Of a stretch of DNA of 64,000 nucleotides, positions 6,236 to 51,882 are shown one piece after another. The notes below the pieces were generated by a model, which was not told the origin of the DNA, did not search any database, and saw only the letters and a list, made by a program, of their open reading frames with translations. The stretch is taken from assembly GCA_026416125.1 (NCBI GenBank), contig JAOAFT010000006.1:13015-77014 (forward strand), written 5' to 3'. The stretch comes from Bacteroidota bacterium (GTDB lineage: Bacteria; Bacteroidota; Ignavibacteria; UBA10030). The first letter of the stretch is position 1; every line of letters starts with the position of its first letter. Position numbers and translations under genes: made by a program.

Positions 6236-7390
6236 TTATGCCAACAAGTTACGAACAAATTCACGCGTTGTACGGTCCGCTTCTAGAGTTTGCTCAAATT
6301 CTGGTACCCTATGGTTACGTTGGGCGGCAAGAGATTGTTCTATCAATTGTGGAATCCGATCGAATGTAATTTTCCTTTCAAGAAATGCGTGTACAGCAAC
6401 CTCATTTGCAGCGTTCAAAACAGCTGGAGCTGTTCCACCTAACGTGAGTGCATCGTATGCTAGTTGAAGACATCGGAATTTTACCAAGTCTGGTGCAAGA
6501 AATGTTAGACACTGAAGTTGTGGGAAGTTCACAGTGCAAACCTCTAGTGGCAGCCGATCTGGGTATGTAAGCGCATATTGGATAGGGATTTTCATGTCTG
6601 GGTACCCGAGTTGCGCTTTAATAGAGCCATCGATAAACTCGACCATCGAGTGAATAATTGATTGTGGATGAATAACAACTTCTATGTGTTGAGGTTCAAG
6701 GTTAAAGAGCCAGTGTGCTTCGATTACTTCTAACCCTTTATTCATTAATGTTGCAGAATCGATTGTGATCTTATTCCCCATTTTCCAATTTGGATGTTTC
6801 AGTGCTTCTTCCACCGTTATCGAGGGAAACTGTTCAGCAGGTGTATTCAGGAATGGTCCGCCTGAAGCGGTGAGAATTATTTTCTTCACCGTTGATCGTT
6901 CTTCACCTGTCAGGCACTGGAGAATCGCACTGTGTTCGCTATCGATCGGAACAATTGGAACATTATACTCTCGGGCAAGTGTAGTTACTATAGCACCAGC
7001 AACAACGAGTGTTTCTTTGTTTGCAAGGGCAATGTGTTTTCTATGTGTTATTGCTTCAATTGTCGGTCGTAATCCAGCAAAACCAACAAGGGCATTAAGG
7101 ACGATATCGACATTGTCCCTCCGTACCACTTCGAGAAGCCCTTCTGTCCCTACCAATACCTCCACACCTTCAATGCGCTTCTTCAATTTTTCCGCTTGGC
7201 TAGGATTTAGCACAACCACTCCATATGGATGAACCTGTCGAATTTGGTACTCTAGAAGTTCAATATTTACATTCGTTGTAAGGTAGGTTATCCGGAACCG
7301 ATCTCTCAAGTTCTTCAACACCGCAATACTACTTTGCCCGATTGATCCAGTTGAACCAAGTATTGCTATATTCTTAGGATTTACACACAT
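6236..7390 (-). CDS. dxr: 1-deoxy-D-xylulose 5-phosphate reductoisomerase.
   Basis: N-terminal NADPH-binding motif ILGSTGSIGQSSIAVL. Full-length Dxr architecture (384 aa). Confidence 0.9.
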   Translation of the reverse strand: MCVNPKNIAILGSTGSIGQSSIAVLKNLRDRFRITYLTTNVNIELLEYQIRQVHPYGVVVLNPSQAEKLKKRIEGVEVLVGTEGLLEVVRRDNVDIVLNALVGFAGLRPTIEAITHRKHIALANKETLVVAGAIVTTLAREYNVPIVPIDSEHSAILQCLTGEERSTVKKIILTASGGPFLNTPAEQFPSITVEEALKHPNWKMGNKITIDSATLMNKGLEVIEAHWLFNLEPQHIEVVIHPQSIIHSMVEFIDGSIKAQLGYPDMKIPIQYALTYPDRLPLEVCTVNFPQLQCLTFLAPDLVKFRCLQLAYDALTLGGTAPAVLNAANEVAVHAFLERKITFDRIPQLIEQSLAAQRNHRVPEFEQTLEADRTTREFVRNLLA

Positions 7391-7493
7391 ATCAATTTCA
7401 AAGTAAAGAAATTAGACAGTGTTGTCAAGAAATGGATAGTTCTCCGATTTCTTTGGCTATCGTCAATCGTTTGTACACATTCGTTGTATCCGG

Positions 7494-8255
7494 TCAAATG
7501 GTATGTTCGTTACCTAAAAAAAATAGTGTTTCGAGTTTGTGAGTACAGGGATATACTAAAAATTCGCTTTTGTAGGAGCGTACCTTTTGGAAAAGGAAGA
7601 AAATACCCCACGCCATTGTTGGAAGTAGTGTTGATAATGGTTTTGCGAGTACAGGTGGCAATGGGTAGAAATTACTCCCAGCAAACTTGTGAAGTATGTA
7701 CCCTTGCGGAAAACAGGCACTTAAAAATTTCATCAAATCGCTTTTTGTGTACCCACGAAGGTGAGCGGAATAATTTTGGATACACGTTGGTTGTTTCCCA
7801 AAAGCTAGAAGTACCCGATTGTGAAATGAGGCGAGATTTGGAACACCAATAATGATAAATCCGCCCACGCGAAGTACACGTGTTGCCTCATGGAATACCC
7901 AGAATATTTCTTTGATATGTTCAAAAATTTGGTTTGCTATGATGACATCTACTGATTCAGTTGACAATGGAATTTTCTCCCGCTCAATATTGAGAGTATG
8001 GACAATTATACCATTAGCCTGCAATTCTTTTATGTATTCCGGTTCGATTTCTATTGCATGGAGCTCGCACGATGTGTTATACTCGCGAGCACGAATAAGG
8101 TCGATTCCCCACCCGGCACCGATATCAAGTACAACGTTCCCATTGGTTGTACAAAGGGCTTCCGAAAGGAAACGACGTACAATGTGTCGGCCATAATTTA
8201 GAGAACGGTCTATAACAGGAGTGAGTAGATCTTTATTGTTCATACGTGATCCCAC
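7494..8255 (-). CDS. Class I SAM-dependent methyltransferase.
   Basis: Methyltransferase motif I VLDIGAGWGIDLI and a post-I acidic residue. About 250 aa. Confidence 0.7.
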   Translation of the reverse strand: MGSRMNNKDLLTPVIDRSLNYGRHIVRRFLSEALCTTNGNVVLDIGAGWGIDLIRAREYNTSCELHAIEIEPEYIKELQANGIIVHTLNIEREKIPLSTESVDVIIANQIFEHIKEIFWVFHEATRVLRVGGFIIIGVPNLASFHNRVLLAFGKQPTCIQNYSAHLRGYTKSDLMKFLSACFPQGYILHKFAGSNFYPLPPVLAKPLSTLLPTMAWGIFFLFQKVRSYKSEFLVYPCTHKLETLFFLGNEHTI

Positions 8256-9243
8256 AATCTTGTAGTGCTGCTTCGAGAATTTCTTGGTTCTTTAGCCCTT
8301 CTTCACCAGGTACTGGTGGTTCTGTATTATCGAGTATCGCATCCGAGAAAAGGGTAATCTCCCGTTCGTAGAGATTTGGTACAAATTCATGGTGGTACTG
8401 TGGAGGTTCCGCAAGCCCGTTCTTTCCATCAACGATTACAATGTCAACCTCTTGATCACTCATGGTAAAATCTGATAAAGCTACGATACTTTCTGTCCCT
8501 ATAAGTTCAATAATTGACCGACGAAAAGGAGTTTCGAATGAGCACATCACTGATCCAAGTACCCCACTGGCAAACTGGAGGTTTACGATTGCAGTACTTT
8601 CCGTTCTTTCTTCAGTTGGAGTTGGGACCAAGTGCCCTTTAACAGAAACTACTTCTTCTCCAAGGATGTACCTCATTGTATCAACGCAATGTACACCAAT
8701 ATCGAACCATGGACCTCCTCCAGCAAGACGCCGATTGTATAACCACGTTCTGGGAGAACGTCGAGCATCGTAAACATATTCAGCACGAATGTATTGTAGT
8801 GTTCCCATTGTACCAGCTCTTACCAATTTCCTTAACCACTGAATTGCTGGCGAAAACCGAACCATATGTGCAACCATCAATTTTACATTGTTCTCACGAC
8901 ATGTATCAATCATCATCCTGGCTTCACGAGTATTCACAGCCATAGGTTTCTCTACAATCACATGTTTCTTTGCTTTTGCCGCACATACAGTCTGTTCTGC
9001 ATGGAGTGCGTTGGGCGAGCAAATAAATACTGCATCCACATCTGGGTGATGTACAAGTTCCTCAACTGATGCAAAAGCATAGGGAATGTTGAGCTGTTCT
9101 GCTTTTGCTTGTGCTTCACCGAGTGATTGTTTCTGGAGTGCAATGAGTTCTGAGTTTGGTGATTCGAGAATCGCTGGAGCAATCGACCGTTCTGCAAAAC
9201 GTCCATATCCAAGAATGCCATACCGTACTTTACGTTGTTCCAT
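8233..9243 (-). CDS. Gfo/Idh/MocA family NAD(P)-dependent oxidoreductase.
   Basis: N-terminal Rossmann motif VRYGILGYGRFAERSIAPAI. EKP motif (VIVEKPMA) characteristic of the Gfo/Idh/MocA family. Confidence 0.8.
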   Translation of the reverse strand: MEQRKVRYGILGYGRFAERSIAPAILESPNSELIALQKQSLGEAQAKAEQLNIPYAFASVEELVHHPDVDAVFICSPNALHAEQTVCAAKAKKHVIVEKPMAVNTREARMMIDTCRENNVKLMVAHMVRFSPAIQWLRKLVRAGTMGTLQYIRAEYVYDARRSPRTWLYNRRLAGGGPWFDIGVHCVDTMRYILGEEVVSVKGHLVPTPTEERTESTAIVNLQFASGVLGSVMCSFETPFRRSIIELIGTESIVALSDFTMSDQEVDIVIVDGKNGLAEPPQYHHEFVPNLYEREITLFSDAILDNTEPPVPGEEGLKNQEILEAALQDCGITYEQ

Positions 9244-9261: not shown

Positions 9262-10449
9262 TTATTGTTTTTCAGCAAACTGAATTACCACTTGTTGGGG
9301 CTGAATGTATTCAACCGAAAGACCTTCGGGAAACACAATGTTCGATCGGGTAATTGTCCTTCGATATGTCCCCTCTCGGCCATTAAAGATTTTCACTGTC
9401 ACTTTTAATGTCTTCTCATTCAAAAAGAGAAACAAGCGTCGCGGACCAGAGAATGTTACTTCTATTTCCTGTGGATCAATCCGTTTCGCAACGAGTGTTG
9501 CAGGTACATTTTCGAGTTCTACTGGTAGTATGTACGTCCGATAATCAATCTTTGATTCATGAACAAAGAAGAACCAGAGAATAATTGTTGCAGCGATAGC
9601 AAGAAGCATTTCTCGATAGTTTTGTTTAAAAAAATTCTGGAATGGTTTTGATTCCAGTGGTGGTGTAACTTCCTGGTAAAATGCTTCCAACTTTAAGCGG
9701 AGTTCTTCTGCATCTTTCATTACCATTATATCGCCATTCCGAGCAACAGAAATAGTACCTTTTTCTTCTGAAACAACGATACAGAACGCATCGGTTACTT
9801 CTGCAAGACCTAACGCAGCAGCATGGCGCGTACCGGCCTTTTGAAGTTTTCTCAAGTTTTTTGAAAGTGGGAGGTAGCATGAAAATTCTGTTATTTTATT
9901 TCCTTCTATTATTACCGCACCATCGTGTGTTGGAGCACCCGGTGTAAAGAGTGTTTCGAGTACTTGCTCGCTTACTTCACCGTTCAAATCAACACCCCCA
10001 TTGAGATGACGTACGATCGGATCTTTCCCCCTGATTGCAATGAGTGCACCAATCCGATCGTTAGCCAGAGAGTGCACTGCATTCACAATTGCATCTACAC
10101 GGCGTTCCCATCGACTGAAAATACGACGCTGGTGACGTCGCCGGAACAAACTCCGACTGGCAAGTTGTTCAAGGAACCGTTTAATTTCTTCTTGAAAAAT
10201 AATGACAACAGCAATTAAAATTATTGCAAAGAATCCCTGAAACATTGTTGTCGTAAGGAGCAAATCGAGCTGACGAGCTATAAGGTACGCCGCACCTACC
10301 ATAAAGAGACCAAGTGCAGCAAACCCAGCATGTGTTCTCTTAAACCACACAAGGAGCGAATAAATAAAAAGTGTCATAACAAGTATATCAATTAACCCCG
10401 TCACCCCTACAGTTTCCCATAGCTCAGCCATTGTTTTCACTCCTTTCAA
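9262..10449 (-). CDS. cdaA: Diadenylate cyclase CdaA (3 TM + DAC domain) with a C-terminally fused TM + YbbR (CdaR-like) domain.
   Basis: Three N-terminal transmembrane helices. DAC motifs DGAVII and GTRHAAALG. About 130 extra C-terminal residues include a TM helix (LLAIAATIILWFFFV) and a YbbR-like segment (ILPVELENVP...EVTFSG). Confidence 0.8.
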   Translation of the reverse strand: MKGVKTMAELWETVGVTGLIDILVMTLFIYSLLVWFKRTHAGFAALGLFMVGAAYLIARQLDLLLTTTMFQGFFAIILIAVVIIFQEEIKRFLEQLASRSLFRRRHQRRIFSRWERRVDAIVNAVHSLANDRIGALIAIRGKDPIVRHLNGGVDLNGEVSEQVLETLFTPGAPTHDGAVIIEGNKITEFSCYLPLSKNLRKLQKAGTRHAAALGLAEVTDAFCIVVSEEKGTISVARNGDIMVMKDAEELRLKLEAFYQEVTPPLESKPFQNFFKQNYREMLLAIAATIILWFFFVHESKIDYRTYILPVELENVPATLVAKRIDPQEIEVTFSGPRRLFLFLNEKTLKVTVKIFNGREGTYRRTITRSNIVFPEGLSVEYIQPQQVVIQFAEKQ

Positions 10450-11485
10450 CTATTTCATACTGTGATCGCACTAGCGGTTGAAACTTTGAATTGTGTTTCA
10501 ACTTCAATCGTTTCGCTAAACGTTCGACAAGTGTTTGCTCTTCGCGTTCCCATGCGTTTGGATCTTTATTTTCGCGCACTCGTACTTTTCCCCCTGCAAC
10601 CTGGCCGTACCCCCCTGCAGCTCGTGGATTATCAACAATACTGCGTAGTATAGTTGCAGCATCGACATCTGTCAGATGCGTTCGGAGTGAAAAGTGAAGG
10701 GTATCTCCATAACGACCTGTACAAAATGCCCACTGAATACCTTCACACGTCAAAAGAAAATCTGCCATTTGCGCAACGAGATCGGGATTCTCCACAACAC
10801 CAAGGTGTGATACAATAAGACGTTGCCGCACAAGCGCGTTCTGAATACCTCGTACCATTTCGCCAAAGAATCGTCGTGGACGTGATGGATTCTGAATCCG
10901 CGCTAAGAGTCGCATATCCGCAAGAGGAAGGAGTTCAAAGTACGTATCGATTGTTTCTCTTTTCGTCGTGCGTGAAAACTCCAATGTATCTGACAGAATA
11001 CCATACACGAGCGCTGTTGCAAGTTTGACTGGAACTTCGAACCCTTTAGCAAGGAGCTCACGTCCGAGCAATGCTGAAGTTGATCCGGCTTCTGTATCAA
11101 TAAGTATAAAGTCTGCTACAACCTCGTGTGCAGTACTATGCTGGTCAATTACAATTGATGCCTTTCGTTTCGGTGGAAATGAATTATTCTCAAATCCCGG
11201 TTGTGTGTCAACGAGTGCAATGTGTGGATAATGACGGAAATCAGACGTTCTAAGTTTTTTCGCCGGAATTTTCAGTAAGCGAACCATTTCGCGGTTTTCC
11301 GATCGCCCAATGTGCCCTCCGTACACAATCTTTGACCGTATCCCAACGTGGTAAGCAAGGTACTGGAGTGCAAACGCCGATGCTAGAGCATCGGGATCGG
11401 GATAATCATGCGTGAGGATAAGTAGGGGATTTAACTCATCCTTTCGTTCTTCTAGGTAATACGAGAGTTCAAGCGGTTTTGTCAT
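10424..11485 (-). CDS. DHH/DHHA1 phosphoesterase (NrnA/DhhP-like). A candidate c-di-AMP / pAp / nanoRNA phosphodiesterase.
   Basis: DHH-family motifs (LTHDYPDPDALAS; VIDQHS) and a C-terminal DHHA1-like glycine-rich motif (AAGGYGQVAGG). Overlaps the cdaA start by 26 nt. Confidence 0.75.
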   Translation of the reverse strand: MTKPLELSYYLEERKDELNPLLILTHDYPDPDALASAFALQYLAYHVGIRSKIVYGGHIGRSENREMVRLLKIPAKKLRTSDFRHYPHIALVDTQPGFENNSFPPKRKASIVIDQHSTAHEVVADFILIDTEAGSTSALLGRELLAKGFEVPVKLATALVYGILSDTLEFSRTTKRETIDTYFELLPLADMRLLARIQNPSRPRRFFGEMVRGIQNALVRQRLIVSHLGVVENPDLVAQMADFLLTCEGIQWAFCTGRYGDTLHFSLRTHLTDVDAATILRSIVDNPRAAGGYGQVAGGKVRVRENKDPNAWEREEQTLVERLAKRLKLKHNSKFQPLVRSQYEIVERSENNG

Positions 11486-11600
11486 AGTAACTTTTTATCT
11501 CTCACCATTACAGTATACAACATTTTATTTTGATATTAAATATAGCTGAACGTGCTATGGGAACCTTGCAATTCACACTCATTCTTGGTACTTTTGTGAT

Positions 11601-12665
11601 ATGAAGAGCAATGATATCATGAAACCAGACCGTAGTGCCCACGAGATTGAGATCGACAAATCATTACGTCCCACTGTTTTAGATGAATTCGTCGGACAAG
11701 AAAAAATTGTTGAAAATTTACGTGTTTTTATAGCTGCTGCCAGGAAACGTGGTGAAGCATTAGACCACGTGTTACTAACAGGTCCTCCAGGCCTCGGAAA
11801 AACGACCCTTGCATACATCATTGCCAAAGAAATGGGAGCTGGAATAAAGGTTACTTCAGGTCCGGCACTTGAAAAGCCTGGCGACTTGGCAGGGATACTT
11901 ACATCATTGAACAAAGGCGAAGTCCTTTTTATTGACGAAATACATCGAGTACCAACAAAAATTGAAGAGTACCTTTACTCTGCAATGGAGGACTTCCGTG
12001 TCGACATCGTTATCGAAAGTGGACCCGGTGCAAAAACAATCCAACTAGGCCTACAGCCATTTACCCTTGTTGGCGCAACAACTCGAGCTGGACTTATTAG
12101 CTCACCGTTGCGGTCACGCTTTGGCATTGCCAACAGGCTGGATTACTATTCTGTTGATCAACTTACACGTATCATTAAACGATCTGCATCTCTCTTAAAA
12201 ATTTCCATCGATGAAAGAGCAGTGCACGAGCTTGCAAAACGATCTCGCGGCACACCACGAATTGCAAATCGTCTCTTACGACGATGCCGTGATTTCGCAG
12301 AAGCTGATCCTAAACTTAAACAACACCAAGGAACAATAACATACGATGTTGCACGCTATGCACTGCAAGCACTCGAAGTTGACGACCATGGGCTCGATGA
12401 TATGGACAAACGTATTCTTCATGTACTCATCGAAAAGTATGACGGAGGACCTGTAGGACTCAATACACTTGCTGTCGCTGTTGGCGAAGAAGCTGGTACA
12501 TTGGAAGAAGTGTATGAACCATATCTCATTCAGGAAGGATTTCTTAAACGTACGCCACGCGGACGTGAGGCAACACCATTAGCATTCAAACATCTCGGTA
12601 TACGGAAAGTTAGTGCAATTCAGAGTGATCTTGATTTTACCACCAATCAAAAGAATCACAAATGA
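11601..12665 (+). CDS. ruvB: Holliday junction branch-migration helicase RuvB.
   Basis: Walker [12 protein letters not shown]. RuvB signature [15 protein letters not shown]-terminal winged-helix region. 354 aa. Confidence 0.92.
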
Positions 12666-14533
12666 AACACACGCACCTTTTCATTCTGGGGCTTGGATTT
12701 GGTATTCTCGTATTTCTCTTTTCTCAGGGACCAAATCCTGTTGCTGCTCAACCATCAAAACCCCAAGTTATATTCCGATCGGTATGGTATACAACATATG
12801 CCACAGTTTTTGCAGTGGGCGATAGTGGTACTATTGCTCGCTCAACAGATGGCGGTAAAACATGGGCAGTTGAATCTTCACTCGGTGGGTTTACCGTACC
12901 ATTCTACGGTATCACATTTACTAATGAACAAACAGGGTTTATTATTGGTGCAAAAGGTACACTACTTACTACGAACGATGGCGGTGGTATTTGGACAACA
13001 GTATCAGTTCCTCAATCAACAAATTTAAATGGTATTTACTTCTCAACACCACGCGATGGATTTATTGTCGGTGATGGTGGATTAATACTTCGGACAACCA
13101 ACAGTGGCACAGTATGGAGAGTTGTACCAAGTGGAACAAAAAATAAACTCCTGAGCGTTGCATTCAGCGATAATAATAATGGAATCATCGTAGGCGAGCA
13201 AGGTACCATTCTAAAAACAACAAACGGTGGTACATCGTGGGAGGATATTTCATCTTCATTTATAAGCGGTACACTCTACGACGTTGCATTCTCAGGTACG
13301 AGCGGTATTATTGTTGGTGAAACAGGAACAATCCTCCACACGAACACTGGTGGCCAAAAATGGTCTCTTGCACCGAGTGCAACAAACCATACTCTCTTTG
13401 GTGCTATCGCTGTATCATCACAAATTTTTTATACTGTTGGTGATAAAGGATATATTCTCTTCTCCAACAACAAACCGACTTCATGGACAAAGCAAACAAC
13501 CAACATCCGTGTCGATTTGTTTGACATCGCATTTACTGGTTTCCAAACTGGGGTTGCTGTTGGCGACGAAGGTACTATTCTCTACACAACAGATGCTGGG
13601 ACAACTTGGACCTCAGCAACAGTAACACGCGAAATTTCTTACAAGAAAACGTCCACCGTCAAATCGATTGTACGACGAAATATCGCCACAATTGTTGGAG
13701 CTAATGGACTCATCCTTCAGTCAAAGGATTTCGGTGACTCGTGGGTGGAGGTACCAGTCAACATCGATAATACACTCATGTCAATCACAACGGATAATGA
13801 GAGCGGAATGTTTGCTGTTGGACTCAATGGACGGATTATTGCCTCGGTTGACGGTGGAGCAACGTGGTCAATTCAGAGTAGCAATGTTCGACAACCACTC
13901 TACGCTGTACATTTTCTTAACCCCACAATCGCTGTTGCAGTCGGTGACTACGGCGTTATTCTCCGCACAACAAACGGAGGGACTACTTGGACAGTTCATT
14001 CTGCCAACGTCATGAATCATCTACGAGGCGTATTTTTCCAAAGTGAAGATAAAGGATATGCAGTTGGTTCAGGCGGCATTCTCTTAGTAACAACAGACCT
14101 TGGGAATACGTGGACACGACGAACAACTGGTGTGAGTGCGTGGTTGAACGATATTGGAGGAACAGAACAATCTCTCTGGGCTGTAGGCGCAGGGGGGGTA
14201 ATTCTTCGCTCAAAAGACGATGGCAACACTTGGTCTCAACAAACAAGTGGTGTAACAAGTGATTTATTCGGCGTTTACTTCTTAGATAACAGTAAAGGCT
14301 TCATTGTTGGCGCCAGTGGTACTATTCTCTCAACAACGAATGGTGGAGATCAATGGATTCCTATTACCTCTCCCGTTTCAACCGATCTCCGGAAAATTAC
14401 TTTCTTTGATACCCAACGTGGAATTGTAGTAGGTGAGAATGGTGCCATCCTTATTACGCGGGATGGTGGGAAACGTTGGATAAACAACAGTTATAGACGA
14501 CCTCTTTCATTTTTCGGTATAGTCATTTACTAA
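12662..14533 (+). CDS. Secreted BNR/Asp-box repeat protein of the Ycf48/Hcf136-like beta-propeller type. Its size (623 aa) implies two tandem propellers.
   Basis: Signal peptide. More than 14 recurring S/T-x-D-G-G-x-T-W motifs ([30 protein letters not shown], ...). Start overlaps the ruvB stop (ATGA). Confidence 0.75.
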
Positions 14534-42829: not shown

Positions 42830-45800
42830 ATGTCACACGCAATTGCGGTATTGATAGCAGTACTGTTCATCGCTCTACCAATCTATGCACAGGGAGTGAT
42901 GTACCCTTATCGGCAGAACTTTGATTCCGTCAGCACACCATTTTTCCCAAGTGGATGGGATGCTGTAGGATTCACACTCTCAACATCTTCACCGCGTTCT
43001 TCTCCGAACTGTGTGTACACAGCTGGTAACACAGCTAAGAAGACACTTACCACACCACCCTTTGACTTTGTGAAAAGAAATCCAGAAAAACTTACATTCT
43101 GGGAACGACGCTCAGCAACAGCTCTCACTTATCGACTTGAAGTCCGAGCTGCTATTGAGGATACAAATTTTTCCATACTTCTCGCCCGTTTTGACACTAG
43201 TCCATCAACTACAAGTTACATACTCAGGAGTGTTGATCTTTCTTCCAGTGTACTTGCTAACCGTTCAAACGTTCGATTTCGGTGGGTACTCCTCCAGGAT
43301 AACACCAATTCTACTGGTACACTCCGTATTGATGATGTAAGTATCACCGTACTGCCGACATACGATGTTGGAGTATCAGCGTTTACAATTTCAACTATCA
43401 ATCCAACCCGACGTGACTCATTAATATTCACAGCGACTATTTCAAATTACGCAACAAACTGTGGACGCGTACCTGTTTACTTTGGGCGAGATCTTAACGA
43501 AAACGGTAAAGCCGACCCCAACGAATTTATTACAACTGTTTCTATCGACACTCTTTTTGGAGGCGATTCATCAATTCTACAGTTTATCCATCCTCCATTA
43601 AAGCCAGCAGCCTATTCATTTTTCACTCTCACAGCAGCACTATCCGATGAGAATCGTTCAAATGACACTAGCATGTTATGGTGTACTATTGGATTTTGCA
43701 GAGGTGATGTTATCATTAATGAATTCCTCTATGCGCCAACTGGTGATGAGGACGAATGGATAGAACTCTATAACACGACATCCGATTCTGTGAATCTTCG
43801 GTTGTGGAAAGTTGCTGATAATAGTACTGCAGGGAAAACAACAATTACTACAAGCGATGTCATTTTCCCTCCTCGTTCGTACGCAGTACTATACAAGGAT
43901 CATATGTTCACCACACTTCACCCCGGTGTATTTGGGGTTCGAGTGCCTTTTGCTGCGCTCAACAACACCACGTCTGACGCAATTGTGCTCTATGACTCAC
44001 GGAACGTTGTTATCGATAGTCTTCGGTACGAACCATCATGGGGAGGAAAGAATGGGAAATCACTTGAGCGTATTGAGCCTGAACAACCGAGTACATCGAG
44101 AAGTAATTGGCAAACAAGTGATTCTACCATTGGCACACCAGGATTTGAAAACAGTGTTGCACGGAAAATGATTGATCTTGCAATTACAGCAATCAATGCG
44201 CGTTTTTTATATTCTACACCTCCTCAGTGGTTTATTGAACTTGTCGTTAAAAACATTGGAATTTCGACAGTCAAGGGTTGTACCACTCTTTTTTATCTTG
44301 ATACAAACAATAACGCTATCGCTGAGTGGAACGAGGAATGTGTACATTTATTCAACCAAGAACAAATAGTCAAAGGTGATTCTCTCTGCATACGTACAAC
44401 ACTGAATACCTCAGTATGGGGTGAACAAACACTTTTAGTACACCTAGTCGTACCAAACGACGAACGACTAAAAAACAATTTTACTTCACTACTCCTCAAC
44501 AGTGGCTATCCTCCCTCCTCAGTTGTCATCAACGAACTCCAATATGCCCCACCTGAAGGTCAGTGTGAATGGCTAGAACTCTTCAATCGTTCTCACATTC
44601 CAATTAATCTCAAAGGATGGACCTTTGCAGACCGTCCATCACCATCGGGGAATAGAACCATCGTAAAGATTACCGATTCAAATATTGTACTTCTTCCTCA
44701 ATCCTATTGCGTTATTGCAGCTGATTCAATTATCAAGGAAGCATTCCCATCTCTTTCTTCTAAAGTGCTCCTACTAATTCTACAGCGTTCTTCAGGTTTT
44801 AGTTTTAACAACGATAGCGATGCAGTTGTCTTGTACGATGGCATTGGTAATTGCATCGATAGTATCGTCTATATATCGACATGGTCACGAGTAAAAAACA
44901 GATCTCTCGAACGGTACGATACTGAAATACCTGCTCTCGATGTCTTGCAATGGTCGAGTACAGAATCCACAAGCGGCGGTACACCTGGTTTACCAAATAC
45001 GACTGCACGAAAAACATACGATATTGCTCTTGCACGAGCAACGCCTGAGTATTCACATTCGATGAAACACTGGACCATCGTGACAACAGTAAAAAATCTT
45101 GGGCGAATTACTGTACCATCGTACACTCTCACATTTTCACTCGATGGTAACAGGAACTATCTTCCAGAGCCTCATGAAGAACTTTTAGCGCTCAACATTT
45201 CTGAAATACTTGAACCTCTCGATTCTATGACCATTACAACATTGCTCCCCCAACTTCCTGCGGGCGATCAAAGGATACTTGTTGTTCTTACAGAAGACCA
45301 TGACGAACAACAGCGTAACAATACCATCTCTCTTTCTATTACATGTGGATATCCACCTCAATCAATTGTTATCACAGAACTATGTTTTGATCCACCCCCG
45401 GATCAATGTGAGTGGTTCGAACTCTTGAATCGCACAAGCGAGCCGATTAATCTTTTTAAGTGGTCGTTCGCAGATCGACCAACTGCCTCTGGATATCGGA
45501 ATAAATTTACAATTGGAGATTCAATATTTATTCTTCCACCATACAGTTATTGTGTTATCGCCGCAGACTCTACCATCTTTGAGGTTTTCCCTTCTCTTCA
45601 ACACTCTCAAGTACTCATTTTCAACAGAACAACAGGGTTTGGCTTAAATAACGATACTGATGCACTTACTCTTTACGATAACGCAGGAAATTCTATCGAT
45701 AGTGTTACATACTCAGCAAACTGGTTTCGTGTAAAACAGAAAGCCATCGAACGCATCGATGTAGAACAACCGGCACACGATTCAACAAATTGGAGTACTT

Positions 45801-47032
45801 CAGAATCTCCTCAAAGTGGTACACCAGGAGCACCAAACACTGTTGAACGGAAGAACTTCGACATCTGTATCACATACCCCTCTGCCATTGTACAACAAGA
45901 ACATACTATCTTGAGTCTAACAGTGCGAAACGTTGGTCGAGCACCATCATATAGTTTTACAGTTGTCTGTTTTCGCGATAGTAACACCAATACAAGACCA
46001 GATCCATCTGAAGTACTCCTCACAAGAAACTACACTGAGCTCCTTGCACCAAATGATTCGTTGCGTATTGAACTTTTGCTTTCGTACACATTCTATGGTA
46101 CATCAACACTTATGATCATTGTTTTTGATTCGCTTGACCAACGACCAAACAACAATACTGCCACAGTTAGCCTTACTCGATCGTACCCACACCGTTCACT
46201 CGTTATCAACGAAATTCTTTTCAATCCGTTGAATGGACAGAATGAGTGGTTTGAAGTATATAATCGATCACAACTCCCCATTGATCTCAAACGGTGGTAT
46301 ATTGCAGATGCACCTACACCGAGTGGAATACGATCGGTAGTACGAATTTCAGATTCGTCGTATATCCTTTACCCTGGCGAGTACTGTTGTATTGCATCAG
46401 ATTCGAGTATCTTTTCTTTTACCTTTAAAGCGTCCTCACGTGTTCATATTATTACACGCCCGAGTGGTTTTAACTTAGGAAATGATGGTGATGCTTTAGT
46501 ATTGTTCGATCACACAGGAACCCAAATTGATAGCGTATTCTTCTCAGCACAGTGGCACAATCCACGTGTAGCAGATACAAAAGGACGCTCACTTGAGCGA
46601 TTGAATCCAGAATTCGATTCCAACGACCCTCGTTCATGGGGCACGTGCACTCTTCCGGTGGGTGGTACCCCTGCTCACCAAAACAGCATTGCACTCCCAC
46701 TTCCACAGATTGGGGACGTGGTTACTATCGCCCCCAACCCTTTCTCGCCTGATGGAGATGGATATGAAGACCACTGTGCCATTCGCTACTCTCTCCCGTT
46801 CACAGCAACTTTCGTTACCATACGCATTTTCGATGTACGAGGGAGACTTGTGAAAACGCTAGCTGACCGCGAATATCGATCAGGAAATGATGTTATTATT
46901 TGGAATGGGTATGATGATTACAATCGAAGGGTTCGTGTTGGAATTTATATTGTCTTTTTTGAAGCTCGCGAACCACAAACACAGACTATTTTTCGGAATA
47001 AATATATTCTTATCACTGGAACTAAACTTTAA
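42830..47032 (+). CDS. 1400-aa secreted modular protein: four alternating CARDB-like and Lamin-tail-domain (LTD) modules plus a C-terminal T9SS type-B sorting domain.
   Basis: Signal peptide. LTD signatures occur four times (VIINEFLYAP..DEWIELYN; VVINELQYAP..CEWLELFN; IVITELCFDP..CEWFELLN; LVINEILFNP..NEWFEVYN). C-terminus has NPFSPDGDGYED...IRIFDVRGRLV (CHU_C/type-B-like). Confidence 0.8.
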   Translation: MSHAIAVLIAVLFIALPIYAQGVMYPYRQNFDSVSTPFFPSGWDAVGFTLSTSSPRSSPNCVYTAGNTAKKTLTTPPFDFVKRNPEKLTFWERRSATALTYRLEVRAAIEDTNFSILLARFDTSPSTTSYILRSVDLSSSVLANRSNVRFRWVLLQDNTNSTGTLRIDDVSITVLPTYDVGVSAFTISTINPTRRDSLIFTATISNYATNCGRVPVYFGRDLNENGKADPNEFITTVSIDTLFGGDSSILQFIHPPLKPAAYSFFTLTAALSDENRSNDTSMLWCTIGFCRGDVIINEFLYAPTGDEDEWIELYNTTSDSVNLRLWKVADNSTAGKTTITTSDVIFPPRSYAVLYKDHMFTTLHPGVFGVRVPFAALNNTTSDAIVLYDSRNVVIDSLRYEPSWGGKNGKSLERIEPEQPSTSRSNWQTSDSTIGTPGFENSVARKMIDLAITAINARFLYSTPPQWFIELVVKNIGISTVKGCTTLFYLDTNNNAIAEWNEECVHLFNQEQIVKGDSLCIRTTLNTSVWGEQTLLVHLVVPNDERLKNNFTSLLLNSGYPPSSVVINELQYAPPEGQCEWLELFNRSHIPINLKGWTFADRPSPSGNRTIVKITDSNIVLLPQSYCVIAADSIIKEAFPSLSSKVLLLILQRSSGFSFNNDSDAVVLYDGIGNCIDSIVYISTWSRVKNRSLERYDTEIPALDVLQWSSTESTSGGTPGLPNTTARKTYDIALARATPEYSHSMKHWTIVTTVKNLGRITVPSYTLTFSLDGNRNYLPEPHEELLALNISEILEPLDSMTITTLLPQLPAGDQRILVVLTEDHDEQQRNNTISLSITCGYPPQSIVITELCFDPPPDQCEWFELLNRTSEPINLFKWSFADRPTASGYRNKFTIGDSIFILPPYSYCVIAADSTIFEVFPSLQHSQVLIFNRTTGFGLNNDTDALTLYDNAGNSIDSVTYSANWFRVKQKAIERIDVEQPAHDSTNWSTSESPQSGTPGAPNTVERKNFDICITYPSAIVQQEHTILSLTVRNVGRAPSYSFTVVCFRDSNTNTRPDPSEVLLTRNYTELLAPNDSLRIELLLSYTFYGTSTLMIIVFDSLDQRPNNNTATVSLTRSYPHRSLVINEILFNPLNGQNEWFEVYNRSQLPIDLKRWYIADAPTPSGIRSVVRISDSSYILYPGEYCCIASDSSIFSFTFKASSRVHIITRPSGFNLGNDGDALVLFDHTGTQIDSVFFSAQWHNPRVADTKGRSLERLNPEFDSNDPRSWGTCTLPVGGTPAHQNSIALPLPQIGDVVTIAPNPFSPDGDGYEDHCAIRYSLPFTATFVTIRIFDVRGRLVKTLADREYRSGNDVIIWNGYDDYNRRVRVGIYIVFFEAREPQTQTIFRNKYILITGTKL

Positions 47033-47182
47033 CTGGTTAGTTATGACTACTCTTAATTCTTTATCACTTATCCTTATCAAAAAACACTAAAACTTTATAA
47101 CCTCGAAATTGCAAGTAATAAAAACTTTTTTAATACATTTGTTATTAACTCATTTAACTTTAAATCTAAAGTATACCACTTT

Positions 47183-48106
47183 ATGATGACACATTTCTAT
47201 ATTATAGTCCATTTCTTTACTTTCGGTGCTGGAGTAATGCTTGTTTCTTTCTCTCTCATTGCTTTTAAAAAAACACAAAAGATATTTTACCTAAATCTTT
47301 TCTACTTTACGATAGTAATAATTATTTTTTCATTCTTAGGCTTTTTATACACGTACAAAACAGGGCTACAGCTTCAGTTCCCTACATTGTATTTTCGCGT
47401 CTATGATATTCTATGGTCTCTTTTCTGGTTTCTCTATTACCGTATTTCCCCTCGTTTTTTCTACCATATACTCGAAAAAACTATACCACGAATTGTTGAG
47501 ATCTGCTTTAATGCCATAAGTTTTGTTGCAATTCCATACTTACTGGTTTACACTTTTAACATTCTAACACTAAAAAACGCTATCGATATCATTGTAGAAA
47601 TCTTACTGTATTTGAGTGCTCTCTTCCACTGTGTTTTAGTCTTTCACTATAAAAACAACGTTAAAAAACCAGAAATGAGGCATTATGTCCAATATGTCTC
47701 TATTTACTTTTTTATATTTATTCCCCTCGCGTGCCTTAATGTTTTCTTAAACTTTACCCTGCTTCCTATTATTGAAAACAACTTAAAAAATTATTTAATC
47801 TCGTTTTCAGTTCTTGCTTGGTTTATATTAAACATTATTTTTCTGTTCCGACAATTTTCTTTAGAAAGTACTCATATAGCTTTTGAAATTCCAAAAGAAG
47901 TACAAGCCAAATATGGTTTAACAGACCGCGAAATTCAAATAATCAAACTACTCGTTGACAGGTATAGTTATAAAGAAATAGCTTACCAACTCTTCATCTC
48001 AGTACCCACCGTTAAGTATCATGCCTCTAATATCTATTTTAAGCTCAATATTAAAACAAGAGCAGAACTTATCGAACTCCTAAAAAAATACAGTTACACT
48101 TCGTAA
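47183..48106 (+). CDS. Polytopic membrane protein with a C-terminal LuxR/GerE-type HTH (membrane-bound one-component regulator).
   Basis: About 6-7 predicted TM helices over ~230 aa, followed by LTDREIQIIKLLVDRYSYKEIAYQLFISVPTVKYHASNIYFKL. Very AT-rich. Confidence 0.75.
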   Translation: MMTHFYIIVHFFTFGAGVMLVSFSLIAFKKTQKIFYLNLFYFTIVIIIFSFLGFLYTYKTGLQLQFPTLYFRVYDILWSLFWFLYYRISPRFFYHILEKTIPRIVEICFNAISFVAIPYLLVYTFNILTLKNAIDIIVEILLYLSALFHCVLVFHYKNNVKKPEMRHYVQYVSIYFFIFIPLACLNVFLNFTLLPIIENNLKNYLISFSVLAWFILNIIFLFRQFSLESTHIAFEIPKEVQAKYGLTDREIQIIKLLVDRYSYKEIAYQLFISVPTVKYHASNIYFKLNIKTRAELIELLKKYSYTS

Positions 48107-48254
48107 TAGTCTTGAGATGTAAATTTTTATAAAAACTATACAAAAAGTATAGGTCATTTTACTAGACATCTTACTACATTGCAGACAACCATTGTCAGAG
48201 GAGATTAACACTACACAAATAATAAAATCCTTAAAAACGGGAAAGGGCAAAATT

Positions 48255-49835
48255 ATGAAAAGACAAATAATGATAAAAATCATAACCATGTTAATGGTTA
48301 TGATCACGAACAGATGCTTCGCACAAATACCCCAATTGTTGAATTATCAAGGTGTTCTTTGTGACAGCTCAGGATTACCTATAAGCGATGGGACATATAC
48401 GCTAATATTTAAACTTTATGATCATGCAACTAAAAGTGGTGAGCTTTGGTCTGAACAACAAATAGTTACCGTTCGCAAAGGTGTTTTTTCAGTTAATCTT
48501 GGAACTCAATCTCAATTAAATTTGCCTTTTAATAAGCAATATTGGCTTGGTATTACAATAGGTAATGGTAACGAATTAACGCCTCGAATACAATTAACAT
48601 CTTCAGCTTATAGTATGAATTCGATTTCGGTAGCAGATAGTTCAATAACTAGTATTAAGATCAAAGAAGGTGCTATAACATCATCGAAAATAGCAACAAA
48701 TGCAATTACGCAAACAAAACTTGCAGATAGTACCGTTACCACAGAAAAATTAGCAAATTTAAGCGTAACATCATCCAAACTGGCAAACAATTCTGTAACA
48801 ACCGAAAAAATTGCAGATGGAGCCATTACCCAATCTAAGCTTGCTCAAGGTATCTCTATCCCTGTAAGCGGCAATGCTGGTGGCGATCTCACTGGCACAT
48901 ATCCAAATCCAATTATTGGAAACGCTAAAGTAACCAAAGAAAAATTGGCTGATTCGGCCGTAACTACTGCAAAACTCGCCGTCAATTCTGTAACAACCGA
49001 AAAAATTGCAGATGGAGCCATTACCCAATCTAAGCTTGCTCAAGGTATCTCTATCCCTGTAAGCGGCAATGCTGGTGGCGATCTCACTGGCACATATCCT
49101 GACCCTACAATCAAAGACAAAGCAATAGCAAGCAAACACATAAATTGGCCAATCCAATTATCTGATGAGCTCGTATTAGGAAACCCTGGTACTTACTCAC
49201 TCCAAGCAAGTCGATACTCTGGTACTTTACAACTTTGCCCCAATAACACTTCGTATGCTCCTCTTTTTGTGGTCAAAGGCAATTATAGTTACTCTGCTTG
49301 GCTTGGTGGAAATGTACTAATCTCAAACGGAAACTTAACTGTAAATGGGAATCTACTTGTATTTGGTTCAAAGAGTTTTATCATCGACCACCCACTCGAT
49401 CCCGCGAATAAATACCTTGTTCACTTTTGCATTGAATCCAACAAGCCATTGAACGTTTACACTGGTACAGTCGTTACAGATAGAGATGGAAATGCCACTA
49501 TTGACCTACCAGCTTATTTTGAAGCTATAAATCGTGACTTCCATTACCAACTAACTGTCCTTGGTCAATTTGCACAAGCTATTGTAAGTGAAGAGATTCA
49601 CAATAACCGTTTTTCAATAAAAACCGACAAGCCAAATGTTAAAGTGAGTTGGCAAGTAACAAGTGTTCGTAACGATCTTTCCATGCAGGGATCACTTCCT
49701 CAAACTGAAGTTTATAAAAGTGTAAAAGAACGTGGGAAGTACTTCAATCCAAAACTCTATGGTGCACCTCCATCATCAGGTTTATACAACAACGAGTTGC
49801 CACAACATTTAAACGATAGTCATGAATCGAACTAA
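48255..49835 (+). CDS. Secreted tail-fiber-like protein. Domains in order: conserved N-terminal domain, ~10-residue xITxxKLAxx repeats, C-terminal tail-fiber-type domain. The ORF-track start is 48192; the likely start is MKRQIM with a signal peptide.
   Basis: Signal peptide MKRQIMIKIITMLMVMITNRCFAQ. Decapeptide repeats (AITSSKIATN / AITQTKLADS / VTTEKLANLS ...). Perfect 39-aa internal duplication. C-terminal KSFIIDHPLDP...YQLTVLGQFAQAIV resembles Bacteroidetes tail-fibre-domain proteins (from memory). Confidence 0.55.
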   Translation: MKRQIMIKIITMLMVMITNRCFAQIPQLLNYQGVLCDSSGLPISDGTYTLIFKLYDHATKSGELWSEQQIVTVRKGVFSVNLGTQSQLNLPFNKQYWLGITIGNGNELTPRIQLTSSAYSMNSISVADSSITSIKIKEGAITSSKIATNAITQTKLADSTVTTEKLANLSVTSSKLANNSVTTEKIADGAITQSKLAQGISIPVSGNAGGDLTGTYPNPIIGNAKVTKEKLADSAVTTAKLAVNSVTTEKIADGAITQSKLAQGISIPVSGNAGGDLTGTYPDPTIKDKAIASKHINWPIQLSDELVLGNPGTYSLQASRYSGTLQLCPNNTSYAPLFVVKGNYSYSAWLGGNVLISNGNLTVNGNLLVFGSKSFIIDHPLDPANKYLVHFCIESNKPLNVYTGTVVTDRDGNATIDLPAYFEAINRDFHYQLTVLGQFAQAIVSEEIHNNRFSIKTDKPNVKVSWQVTSVRNDLSMQGSLPQTEVYKSVKERGKYFNPKLYGAPPSSGLYNNELPQHLNDSHESN

Positions 49836-49862
49836 CCCGTACATTGCCAAAGGAGATTACTA

Positions 49863-50396
49863 ATGTGGAAAAATTTATGGAAAAAAGTACAGTACCCTCT
49901 TCTTATCTTCATCGTTTTATCTCCAGAATGGGGATACTCACAATTTATTAAATCATCCACTTTTGGAAGTGGAAGCAATACCTGCTTTTCGAGCACCCAT
50001 AGTGTAAGTGGAATTGTAGGACAAAATATCGTAGGACGTGTTTCAAACACTGTGTATTCTCTCCTCTCTGGCTACTGGTCTCACCGTCATTATTCTACAA
50101 CAGCTCTTGAATACACAACAACTAATTATCCACAACAACTGCAATTATTCAATAATTATCCCAATCCATTTAATGCTTCTACCACTATTTCATTTGTAAT
50201 CCCAAAACCATCCTATGTAACATTGAAAATTTACAATTTATTAGGACAAGAAGTCGCAACTTTAATTGAAAAAGAATTATTACCAGGAATATATTCTCAC
50301 ACTTGGAACACAGTTACAGCATCAAGTGGAATGTATGTTTGCGTGCTAAAAGTAGATCAATGTATTGAAACAAAGAAATTATTACTTGTCAAGTAA
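49863..50396 (+). CDS. Small T9SS type-A C-terminal sorting domain protein (mini-cargo, ~90-aa passenger).
   Basis: Signal peptide. C-terminal NYPNPFNASTTISFVIPKPSYVTLKIYNLLGQEVATLIEKELLPGIYSHTWN...SGMYVCVLKV (Por_Secre_tail-like). Confidence 0.75.
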   Translation: MWKNLWKKVQYPLLIFIVLSPEWGYSQFIKSSTFGSGSNTCFSSTHSVSGIVGQNIVGRVSNTVYSLLSGYWSHRHYSTTALEYTTTNYPQQLQLFNNYPNPFNASTTISFVIPKPSYVTLKIYNLLGQEVATLIEKELLPGIYSHTWNTVTASSGMYVCVLKVDQCIETKKLLLVK

Positions 50397-50855
50397 AAAT
50401 TCTTCATGTATGATGGGTGATTGGTGGAGTTATACAAAACACTTGAACTGTTGAGAAATTAAGTATTTAATTCTCATTATAATACGATGTGTGATTCCAC
50501 CAATCTTATGTATATTACCGTATAGAATTCAACCTGTAGAACATATAATTTTCTGATATTTAGACAATAGTAAGAGTACTCCCCCGTTTTCCCATAATTC
50601 ATGATGATCGCGTTTTCTACTTATACTCCACCTATTTTCCTTCTAATGAAATCTTTTACGATAATGCCATGTGTCATTCTCTACATTTTTATCCATAAAT
50701 ACTCTCTTTATTCTTCCAAATTTTGTAATATTGACTAATACCCCATACAATAAGTACAAACTCTATCAGACTCATAAAGTGCAAACGATGTGATTCAAGT
50801 TCGTTCTCAAAATTATTGAATAATACAGGGAAATTCTCTACATTATGATAGTGAA

Positions 50856-50927
<72 letters not shown>

Positions 50928-50955
50928 TCTACTTTCAAAGGAAATTCTCTATACC

Positions 50956-51882
50956 TCAATAGAGTACCAACCACTTACCGTGAGCTGGTTTCCCTAGTAC
51001 TTTTCGAATCCCTGGTGCCGGAAAATGGTAAAGATCGAGAACTCGTACAAGTGCTTTCCAGGTATCATGGTCTACAGGGAGCGTAGCGAGATTGTAATCG
51101 AGTGCTATAACAAATTTACGGGAGGGTACTCCAGGAGGGTAAATTGGTGTTCCACTAACCCAGTGTGGTCGACTTGAAATATTCTCTCCACCGTATCCAA
51201 TTGCAATGTTGAGGAATGGTACCCAGTACGACTTTACTTTCTCTGGTAACAGATTGTAAACATCAATCGTAAGCCAGTACAGATGTCCATCGTAGTCATC
51301 CGTAATCCGAAAGTGCCGATCAAAGGGTATAATACCAGAAGGGTAGTAACTCCATTTAAATTTAAAATTATTAAAGAACGGTACACATCGCTGAAGATAC
51401 GCATATCCTATACCAAGAATATTTGCATTCAGATCAGTCATTGAAAACGCATACGTCGAGAAACCATCTCCAATTTCAATGGAGAGCGCATAGAAAAAGG
51501 ATATACCACTGCTCCACCACTGAGCAGTCAATTCAGAGTAACCACCCCAGCGGAATAATTCATAGAGAATAGTAGTGTATGCATACGAAGTATAGAAATG
51601 TCCTATTTTATCGACACCAAGAGAATAGTTGTGCCAGAACCCATCGTTTTCAAATCGAAACGGGTGATAATTTCCTTCCCACCACCACTTGTATTCGAGA
51701 TATGTTGTAAAGAGAGTGTGAACAGCAATACCAGCTGTAATAAATGGCTTCCTCTGGAGGTACCATGGAGACCCATCCATTGCTCTCGTAGAATCCAATT
51801 TCTGAGCATGGATATAAGACACTGCGACCTGTGTGAGAGAGATAAGGATTATATATTTTCTAAAAGTCAAAGTAAACCCCAA
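50956..51882 (-). CDS. Hypothetical secreted (outer-membrane?) protein. TTG start per the ORF track.
   Basis: N-terminal signal-like segment. Trp/Tyr-rich. No motif recognised. Confidence 0.45.
   Translation of the reverse strand: MGFTLTFRKYIILISLTQVAVSYIHAQKLDSTRAMDGSPWYLQRKPFITAGIAVHTLFTTYLEYKWWWEGNYHPFRFENDGFWHNYSLGVDKIGHFYTSYAYTTILYELFRWGGYSELTAQWWSSGISFFYALSIEIGDGFSTYAFSMTDLNANILGIGYAYLQRCVPFFNNFKFKWSYYPSGIIPFDRHFRITDDYDGHLYWLTIDVYNLLPEKVKSYWVPFLNIAIGYGGENISSRPHWVSGTPIYPPGVPSRKFVIALDYNLATLPVDHDTWKALVRVLDLYHFPAPGIRKVLGKPAHGKWLVLY

Follow-up and report, generated by a model that had tools for sequence, protein, structure and literature searches.

A CdaA-type cyclase with a fused YbbR domain beside a DHH/DHHA1 phosphoesterase: a putative c-di-AMP turnover module in an Ignavibacteria-lineage bacterium

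Two adjacent genes in a 64,000-nucleotide stretch of DNA from a Bacteroidota bacterium (assembly GCA_026416125.1, contig JAOAFT010000006.1; GTDB class Ignavibacteria, UBA10030), which as a whole is called the window below, probably form a two-gene module for the turnover of cyclic di-AMP (c-di-AMP). The second gene (cdaA-ybbR, 9262..10431) encodes a CdaA-type diadenylate cyclase of 389 amino acids, counted from its ATG, that is fused to a single YbbR domain. The gene preceding it (10424..11485) also starts at ATG and encodes a soluble DHH/DHHA1 phosphoesterase of 353 amino acids, here called the DHH protein. It belongs to a clade with DQH at the DHH motif, and would act as a hydrolase of c-di-AMP, of its linear product 5'-phosphoadenylyl-adenosine (pApA), or of both. 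These genes and all their domains lie on the minus strand. Many bacteria cannot do without c-di-AMP, or are harmed by it under certain conditions.

Results

The two open reading frames (ORFs) described in a sequence-only reading of this DNA were both present at the coordinates given, 10424..11485 and 9262..10449, on the minus strand. Each has homologues at E<1e-200, which excludes chance ORFs; antisense ORFs within both genes (e.g. 9925-10218 and 10968-11231, plus strand) were rejected as spurious in view of the homologues of the sense frames. The mechanical ORF of cdaA reaches a TTG at 10449, which gives a protein of 395 amino acids, and from this start an overlap of 26 nucleotides between the genes had been deduced. 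We found a Shine-Dalgarno-like AGGAG 8 nucleotides 5' of the ATG at 10431 and none at the TTG, and this ATG aligns with the sole possible start in several orthologous loci. Because of these two observations the ATG at 10431 is most likely the start of cdaA, which makes the overlap 8 nucleotides rather than 26 and the cyclase 389 amino acids long. As read from the sequence, the gene junction (10424..10444) consists of the AGGAG (10440-10444), an 8-nucleotide spacer, the cdaA ATG (10429-10431) and the TGA stop of the DHH gene (10424-10426), and the 8 nucleotides shared by the two genes read ATGGCTGA. Cyclase residue numbers below refer to the 389-residue form.

By family and motifs, the product of the second gene is a CdaA-type membrane diadenylate cyclase, predicted to synthesize c-di-AMP. 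It matched Pfam DAC (PF02457) at E=2.4e-37 (127.6 bits, cut-off 27) and Pfam CdaA_N (PF19293) at E=1.8e-5 (25.3 bits, cut-off 23.8). The NCBIfam equivalog model for CdaA, TIGR00159, was narrowly passed (191.4 bits, cut-off 188.8), and CdaA structures in the PDB matched the protein at E ~1e-33. Both HDGA (H169, D170, G171, A172) and the RHAA of GTRHAA (R202, H203, A204, A205) were invariant among 112 orthologues. CdaA_N covers residues 10-79 (10195..10404) and contains three transmembrane helices, with hydropathy peaks at residues 10-28, 34-55 and 61-79. The DAC domain, which carries the DGA and RHxxA motifs, was placed at residues 117-234 (9730..10083) by Pfam, the PDB matches and the invariant columns. 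A fourth transmembrane helix follows at residues 275-293 (9553..9609; hydropathy 1.88 over 19 residues). Because the loop after the third helix holds 11 lysine or arginine residues, the DAC domain is predicted to be cytoplasmic and the last 95 residues to lie outside, in the periplasm. Pfam, TIGR00159, the invariant columns and hydropathy thus agree with the earlier description of a CdaA with DGA and RHxxA motifs and three N-terminal helices.

That description had also included a second element, a C-terminal transmembrane helix plus YbbR-like domain fused to the cyclase, with a profile search for DAC and YbbR as the check. The search gave a divided result. DAC was found as described above; the full-length cyclase had no match to the Pfam YbbR profile (PF07949), and the isolated C-terminal domain reached only 14.1 bits (E=0.06) against a gathering score of 22.3, in a match that spans profile positions 2-79 of 81. 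The fusion itself stood, on the fourth helix, the orthologues and the predicted fold, with the qualification that the window sequence by itself falls below the PF07949 threshold. PF07949 was matched at E<=0.01 by 43 of the 112 full-length orthologues, the best at 9.3e-7. When the 104 C-terminal residues were modelled by AlphaFold2 with these orthologues as input, the predicted local distance difference test score (pLDDT) was 90. Its best YbbR matches in the PDB by Foldseek were 2kq1, 3lyw, 4qdy, 5hqh (the YbbR-like domain of L. monocytogenes lmo2119), 2l3u and 2kpu, with template modelling scores (TM-scores) of 0.63-0.73 and root-mean-square deviations (rmsd) of 1.7-3.1 A; for 3lyw the values were 0.73 and 1.7 A. 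The four top fold matches were all YbbR domains, as were six of the first eight, and ribosomal large-subunit chains filled the other top ranks.

A single-sequence phmmer search of 1.84 billion representatives returned 393 clusters at E<=1e-3. These comprised fused CdaAs of ~390-420 amino acids, fused CdaAs of 475-515 amino acids, and stand-alone proteins with several YbbR domains, in which the best-matching stretch nearly always fell in the domain closest to the membrane, the first one (residues ~25-135). The targets P0292, P0327, P0339, P0349, P0303 and P0319 pass the Pfam YbbR threshold. Because the PF07949 matches of the orthologues, the AlphaFold2/Foldseek fold and the phmmer neighbours agree, we regard the C-terminal part of the cyclase (residues ~296-389, 9265..9546, predicted periplasmic) as a genuine but divergent YbbR domain, present in one copy. 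The longer CdaAs, with about 100 more amino acids, reach the Pfam YbbR score in P0303 (515 amino acids), P0304 (483) and P0319 (506), and in P0303 two stretches match YbbR. How many YbbR domains are fused to CdaA thus seems to vary. Stand-alone CdaR-like matches showed 2 or 4 YbbR stretches. From the order of the parts we infer that the fusion represents a collinear cdaA-cdaR pair that has been joined, with CdaR cut down to its transmembrane helix and first YbbR domain. A stand-alone CdaR is a separate polypeptide with an N-terminal transmembrane helix and several YbbR domains, and the window protein has one such domain within the cyclase chain; the YbbR part may act like CdaR at most, and is not itself a CdaR.

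The DHH protein clearly belongs to the DHH/DHHA1 superfamily as judged by its relatives and its modelled fold. Many of its 2292 homologues pass Pfam DHH and DHHA1 (PF01368, PF02272); the window protein itself scores under both cut-offs (DHH 24.5 bits against 28.1, DHHA1 14.8 against 25.9). Its AlphaFold2 model had a pLDDT of 93.8, and Foldseek placed the catalytic domain of S. aureus GdpP first (5xt3, 5xsp and 5xsi; E ~1e-20, ~20% identity), followed by a D. radiodurans RecJ-like protein, a mycobacterial NrnA homologue, Rv2837c, DhhP, TmPDE, Pde2 and NrnA. When the family profile was compared with the PDB, GdpP (5xsi) was matched over both domains at E=1.5e-8. The NrnA-, Pde2- and DhhP-type enzymes matched more weakly, at 7e-7 for Pde2, 1.7e-5 for Ms NrnA, 6e-3 for Rv2837c and >0.01 for DhhP; pyrophosphatases aligned over the N-terminal domain only. 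The protein reached no NCBIfam model, that of NrnA included. On the two-domain profile and the predicted fold we take it to be a separate subfamily whose nearest solved relative is the GdpP catalytic domain. Its earlier label, NrnA/DhhP-like, fits the architecture only: the sequence matches to NrnA, Rv2837c and DhhP are marginal, and GdpP is nearer. Our best inference that the protein hydrolyses c-di-AMP or pApA accordingly draws on genetic linkage and fold, not on membership of a characterised clade. In the databases the cyclase is entered as 'diadenylate cyclase CdaA' and the DHH protein as 'DHH family phosphoesterase'.

The adjacency to cdaA could instead be without functional meaning, the DHH protein being a pyrophosphatase- or exopolyphosphatase-type enzyme that shares an operon with the cyclase. 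For its N-terminal domain, family II inorganic pyrophosphatases are indeed the top matches by sequence in NCBIfam and the PDB. We nevertheless rejected that identity and give this account very little credence: the match to NF003877, confined to the DHH domain, reaches 50.6 bits where 283 are required, the C-terminal half is DHHA1 and not DHHA2, the whole-chain fold match is poor (TM-score 0.45-0.49, rmsd ~12 A), and the pair alone is conserved while its flanks change.

The catalytic motifs of the DHH protein depart from the canonical pattern at two places. Motif III is D114-Q115-H116 (codons 11138..11146), which aligns with DHH in GdpP and in family II pyrophosphatase; it thus reads DQH in place of DHH. 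Among the 120 closest homologues, to which all column counts here refer, 119 carry DQH; farther relatives carry DHH. In the DHHA1 domain the canonical GGGH (family consensus GGH) is represented by G291-G292-Y293 (codons 10607..10615), and the column of the GGGH histidine holds H in 105 sequences, Y in 8, R in 4 and W in 3. Tyrosine at this position is seen in no lineage but that of the window (P0121-P0128), which has AGGY; most of the family has AGGH. The protein thus lacks both the canonical DHH and the canonical GGGH. Motifs I, II and IV are kept and invariant. Residues that are invariant or nearly so include H26, D30 and D32 (in HDYPDPDA), G60, R61, E63 and N64, D93 with the following TQP, D114 and H116, Y161 with GI, D166 with T, S266 and R268, and the A-G-G...A-G-G glycines and alanines. 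Among these, H26, D30, D32, D93, D114, H116, D166, S266 and R268 show no variation in the 120 homologues, a conservation that is enzyme-like.

Two clades emerged when metagenomes were scanned with the family profile. Clade A comprised 20 loci with 42.8-61.8% identity to the window protein, DQH, and Asp at motif IV; clade B had 33-48% identity and canonical DHH, and 44 of its 60 loci carry Glu at motif IV. The pairings of the first motif III position with motif IV were Q with D in 139 cases, H with E in 44, H with D in 16 and H with N in 1, so that Gln never occurs with Glu. In family II pyrophosphatase the first His of motif III and the motif IV residue presumably bind the same metal, and the Gln-Asp pattern looks like a re-tuned rather than a decayed metal site, although the pairing follows the clade boundaries and is not independent evidence. 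Clade B genes are repeatedly followed by genes for Amidase_3, RNase PH and Ham1/RdgB (L095:3917-7422, L103:3788-7452, L111:3926-7548), a neighbourhood that hints at a housekeeping, nanoRNase-like role for that clade.

These departures also suggest another role, in which a weakened metal site (DQH, GGY) has turned the enzyme into a sensor, and the DHH protein regulates the cyclase by binding a nucleotide or a protein, as GlmM does for CdaA in Firmicutes. Two catalytic-motif positions are non-canonical, the protein would be made in step with CdaA if the overlapping genes are translationally coupled, and cdaA has neither glmM nor cdaR as a neighbour here. We consider such a regulator quite unlikely. 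The remaining metal and phosphate ligands are invariant in the 120 homologues, as is typical of active enzymes; the exclusion of Gln together with motif IV Glu has a re-tuned look, though it is confounded by clade; and the residues found in place of or at the GGGH histidine (H, Y, R and W) can all contact phosphate or base.

The pairing of the two genes recurs well outside the window. Full-length cyclase orthologues number more than 100 among the matches listed, at 48-93% identity. The species-representative genomes with the fusion are metagenome-assembled genomes (MAGs), of which 14 are Ignavibacteria-like, one is from Syntrophales and one from Elusimicrobia; a Zixibacteria MAG also has a CdaA-YbbR fusion. 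Fifteen CdaAs from Bacteroidales or Porphyromonas align via DAC only (to residue ~245-278), with the C-terminal domain unmatched. The DHH gene lies directly 5' of the fused cdaA in 12 of the 16 species-representative genomes with the fusion, Elusimicrobia included, and in all three metagenome contexts, whose flanks are unrelated and which include Zixibacteria. Viewed from the other gene, cdaA lies directly 3' in 8 of the 14 clade-A DHH loci that have at least 600 bp of downstream sequence. In all 18 junctions examined the genes overlap by 8 or 4 nucleotides (ATGnnTGA, ATGA) or are separated by 2-14 nucleotides, a range of -8 to +14. The pairing claimed from the window alone is thus tight, and conserved in 18 loci with otherwise unrelated flanks. 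On one high-GC contig (L063:1782-3928), an unfused CdaA with CdaA_N and DAC is directly followed by a clade-B DHH/DHHA1 gene, in the opposite order; this is an independent second linkage of CdaA with a DHH/DHHA1 protein.

This linkage bears on the alternative that the DHH protein is a general nanoRNase/pAp phosphatase, which would degrade linear dinucleotides including pApA without opening c-di-AMP, the first step being left to an enzyme of PgpH, GdpP or AtaC type encoded elsewhere. Its stand-alone DHH-DHHA1 architecture is that of NrnA, Pde2, DhhP and TmPDE, all of them strong fold matches; the sister clade adjoins RNase PH and Ham1; clade-A members also occur away from cdaA; and the Joint Genome Institute annotation, via COG0618, reads nanoRNase/pAp phosphatase. 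A general nanoRNase does not account well for a tight linkage to cdaA that recurs across several phyla, with either gene first, nor for a sequence nearer to GdpP than to NrnA-type proteins, and we regard this alternative as doubtful. It also overlaps with the c-di-AMP turnover module that we prefer, as pApA hydrolysis belongs to both.

The neighbours of the pair in other genomes include trehalose-6-phosphate synthase/phosphatase (11 loci), MscS (~7) and MgtE (6). c-di-AMP has an established role in osmolyte and ion homeostasis, with which these neighbours fit; trehalose synthesis, MscS and MgtE are all absent from the window. Many Ignavibacteria-like genomes have the module flanked by a divergent trehalose cluster (OtsA/OtsB fusion, TreT-like GT1, DUF5752) on one side and a convergent MscS gene on the other, a setting of osmoadaptation genes (L003:519-4629 and 7205-8329; also L013, L014, L017-L022, L042 and L043). 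MgtE with CBS domains directly follows cdaA or, at loci lacking cdaA, the clade-A DHH gene (L046:5044-6354, L047:5018-6340, L005:7188-8498, L049:3510-4538, L065:1916-3223), and this adjacency may have to do with the Gln in the metal site or with control of ion transport by c-di-AMP. At two loci (L007:130-4712, L009:446-4798) a clade-A DHH gene without cdaA is divergent from a conserved group of tetrahydromethanopterin-biosynthesis-like genes (Mpt_N, GHMP kinase, DUF447, DUF6513, flavoprotein, ATP-grasp), with TrkH or CitMHS transporter genes near.

In the window, a 115-bp intergenic region (11486..11600) separates the DHH gene from a divergent ruvB-like gene (11601-12665, plus strand). It contains a sigma-70-like TTAATA-16-TATACT on the minus strand at 11539-11512, 5' of the DHH gene, with 9 of 12 positions matching; the number of promoter matches in the region was not above that in shuffled sequence, and a promoter at this location is plausible. 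The promoter/terminator scan placed no terminator between the DHH gene and cdaA, and it gave 9 terminator-like sites against 5.4 ± 2.4 in shuffles, which is no clear excess. Genes for a Gfo/Idh/MocA oxidoreductase and a class I S-adenosylmethionine-dependent methyltransferase lie 3' of cdaA (7494-9243, minus strand). The oxidoreductase gene starts 18 nucleotides after cdaA, with no terminator-like site in the gap, and its end overlaps the longest methyltransferase ORF (GTG start) by 23 nucleotides; beyond it follow the methyltransferase, dxr and RseP-type protease genes. Two relatives with 81% identity (L001, L002) keep the order oxidoreductase, dxr, rseP, with the methyltransferase missing. 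Other neighbours in the window include FecR-like, prephenate dehydrogenase, DAHP and KDO8P synthase, Lpt, ClpB and LacI-regulator genes. Among the window ORFs tested, none was pgpH, gdpP, cdaR, glmM, mgtE or a K+ transporter gene. An Rfam scan of the window found no c-di-AMP riboswitch, and only three tRNAs. The DHH protein is 100% identical to P0121 (locus tag N3A63_04135), from a MAG deposited as 'Bacteroidetes bacterium', and the nearest relatives of the window carry Ignavibacteriota or Bacteroidota labels. An exact-sequence look-up of the DHH protein gave no entry.

Further away, a 623-residue protein with six Ycf48/BNR-like stretches and a sortilin-Vps10-like region is encoded at 12662-14533 (plus strand), overlapping the end of the ruvB-like gene by 4 nucleotides. 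A 1400-residue protein with four lamin-tail domains and a CARDB domain (42830-47032, plus strand; 46000-52000 region) adjoins a stretch of lower G+C content, 0.37-0.38 against ~0.42 elsewhere. A DUF5907-repeat protein (48192-49835) and a tRNA (50857-50928) are likewise encoded in the low-G+C stretch, which may be, together with the lamin-tail gene, a surface-protein island.

Discussion

We propose that the YbbR domain would relay, in cis, a cue from the envelope or the periplasm to the cyclase, by analogy with CdaR, which does so in trans in Firmicutes. The DHH gene and cdaA would be co-transcribed and are probably translationally coupled, and the DHH/DHHA1 enzyme would hydrolyse c-di-AMP to pApA, pApA to AMP, or both. 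In such an arrangement the enzymes of synthesis and degradation would be made together, and the level of the signal would be set after translation. Because every other catalytic-motif residue is invariant, the metal site, in which Gln takes the place of the first His of DHH, is more readily seen as remodelled than as dead.

Several observations weigh against this proposal. The first His of DHH, a metal ligand in family II pyrophosphatase, is replaced by Gln, and the GGGH histidine is Tyr in the window lineage. Identity to GdpP is only ~20%, and the N-terminal domain scores equally against inorganic pyrophosphatases. Clade-A DHH genes occur without an adjacent cdaA (L007-L010, L045-L047, L058), and fused cdaA loci occur without the DHH gene (L018, L019, L022, L025). 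The sister clade B stands beside amidase-rph-rdgB, a context that suits a nanoRNase. Co-transcription and coupling are argued from gene geometry only, and our literature search returned nothing on this DHH subfamily or on DHH-DHHA1 proteins with DQH. Lastly, CdaR itself is reported to have opposite effects in different species (PMC9259658).

The cyclase is best compared with the CdaA (DacA)-CdaR systems, i.e. the cdaA-cdaR(-glmM) operon of Firmicutes and dacA-ybbR of Chlamydia. These likewise have a three-helix CdaA_N and a DAC domain with DGA and RHxxA, and YbbR likewise follows a single transmembrane helix and lies outside the cytoplasm; the order cyclase, transmembrane helix, YbbR is that of the genes cdaA-cdaR. 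Canonical CdaR, which has 3-4 YbbR domains, differs in being a separate protein, whereas in the window the regulator is fused to the cyclase and reduced to one YbbR domain. Unlike in the Firmicutes operon, there is no adjacent glmM, and a DHH/DHHA1 gene precedes the cyclase. P. gingivalis was considered as a precedent and set aside: the phosphodiesterase nearby is of the PgpH/HD type, and cdaR is unlinked (PMC9259658).

For the DHH protein, the best match of the whole catalytic unit, by profile and by fold, is GdpP (Pde1), the membrane PAS-GGDEF-DHH/DHHA1 phosphodiesterase of Firmicutes. In contrast to GdpP, the 353-residue window protein has no N-terminal transmembrane helices, PAS or degenerate GGDEF domain, it has DQH rather than DHH and GGY for GGGH, and its family carries additional invariant GRxEN and DTQP motifs. 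The stand-alone enzymes DhhP (Borrelia), Pde2/NrnA (Staphylococcus, Streptococcus), Rv2837c/CnpB and TmPDE (TM1595), which are known pApA and c-di-AMP hydrolases, share its soluble two-domain architecture and its size, with fold matches at E ~1e-17; sequence similarity to them is marginal (E 7e-7 to >0.01). Among such enzymes, specificity for pApA and for c-di-AMP cannot be told apart by sequence. To our knowledge none of these stand-alone DHH/DHHA1 phosphodiesterases is encoded in an operon with a cyclase. A further parallel is offered by the composite GGDEF-EAL proteins of c-di-GMP signalling, in which synthesis and degradation are also made together with a sensor domain and the output is set post-translationally. 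The enzymes and the messenger are different there, and the window has two polypeptides from overlapping genes instead of one chain.

All parts of the module belong to known families, and the gain is incremental. Three features set it apart from described systems, and the literature searched contained no paper on any of them: the YbbR domain fused in cis and in single copy, the operon pairing of the cyclase with a DHH/DHHA1 enzyme, and the DQH clade. In the literature searched, CdaA and YbbR were described as separate proteins only (Firmicutes, Borrelia, Chlamydia), the main survey of DAC architectures lying outside that search, and we found no report of a diadenylate cyclase in Ignavibacteria.

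A bolder interpretation, which we hold to be unlikely, is that the DQH clade is an unrecognised class of c-di-AMP phosphodiesterase with a re-tuned second metal site, the stoichiometric partner of a self-sensing CdaA-YbbR in a local make-and-break unit under a periplasmic cue. If so, the re-tuned site (Gln and Asp, against His and Glu/Asp in the sister clade) might favour Mg2+, given the recurrent mgtE, and Gram-negative Ignavibacteria-like bacteria, Zixibacteria and Elusimicrobia would have in the pair a c-di-AMP system of minimal form. Independently of this, the DHH/DHHA1 clade tied to cdaA offers a concrete candidate for a c-di-AMP/pApA hydrolase outside Firmicutes, one with an altered metal motif. 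The fusion bears on how CdaA senses and on what YbbR does: in this natural construct a transmembrane helix and one YbbR domain would be the minimal piece retained beside the cyclase, and as a single chain the fusion may lend itself to structural and biochemical study.

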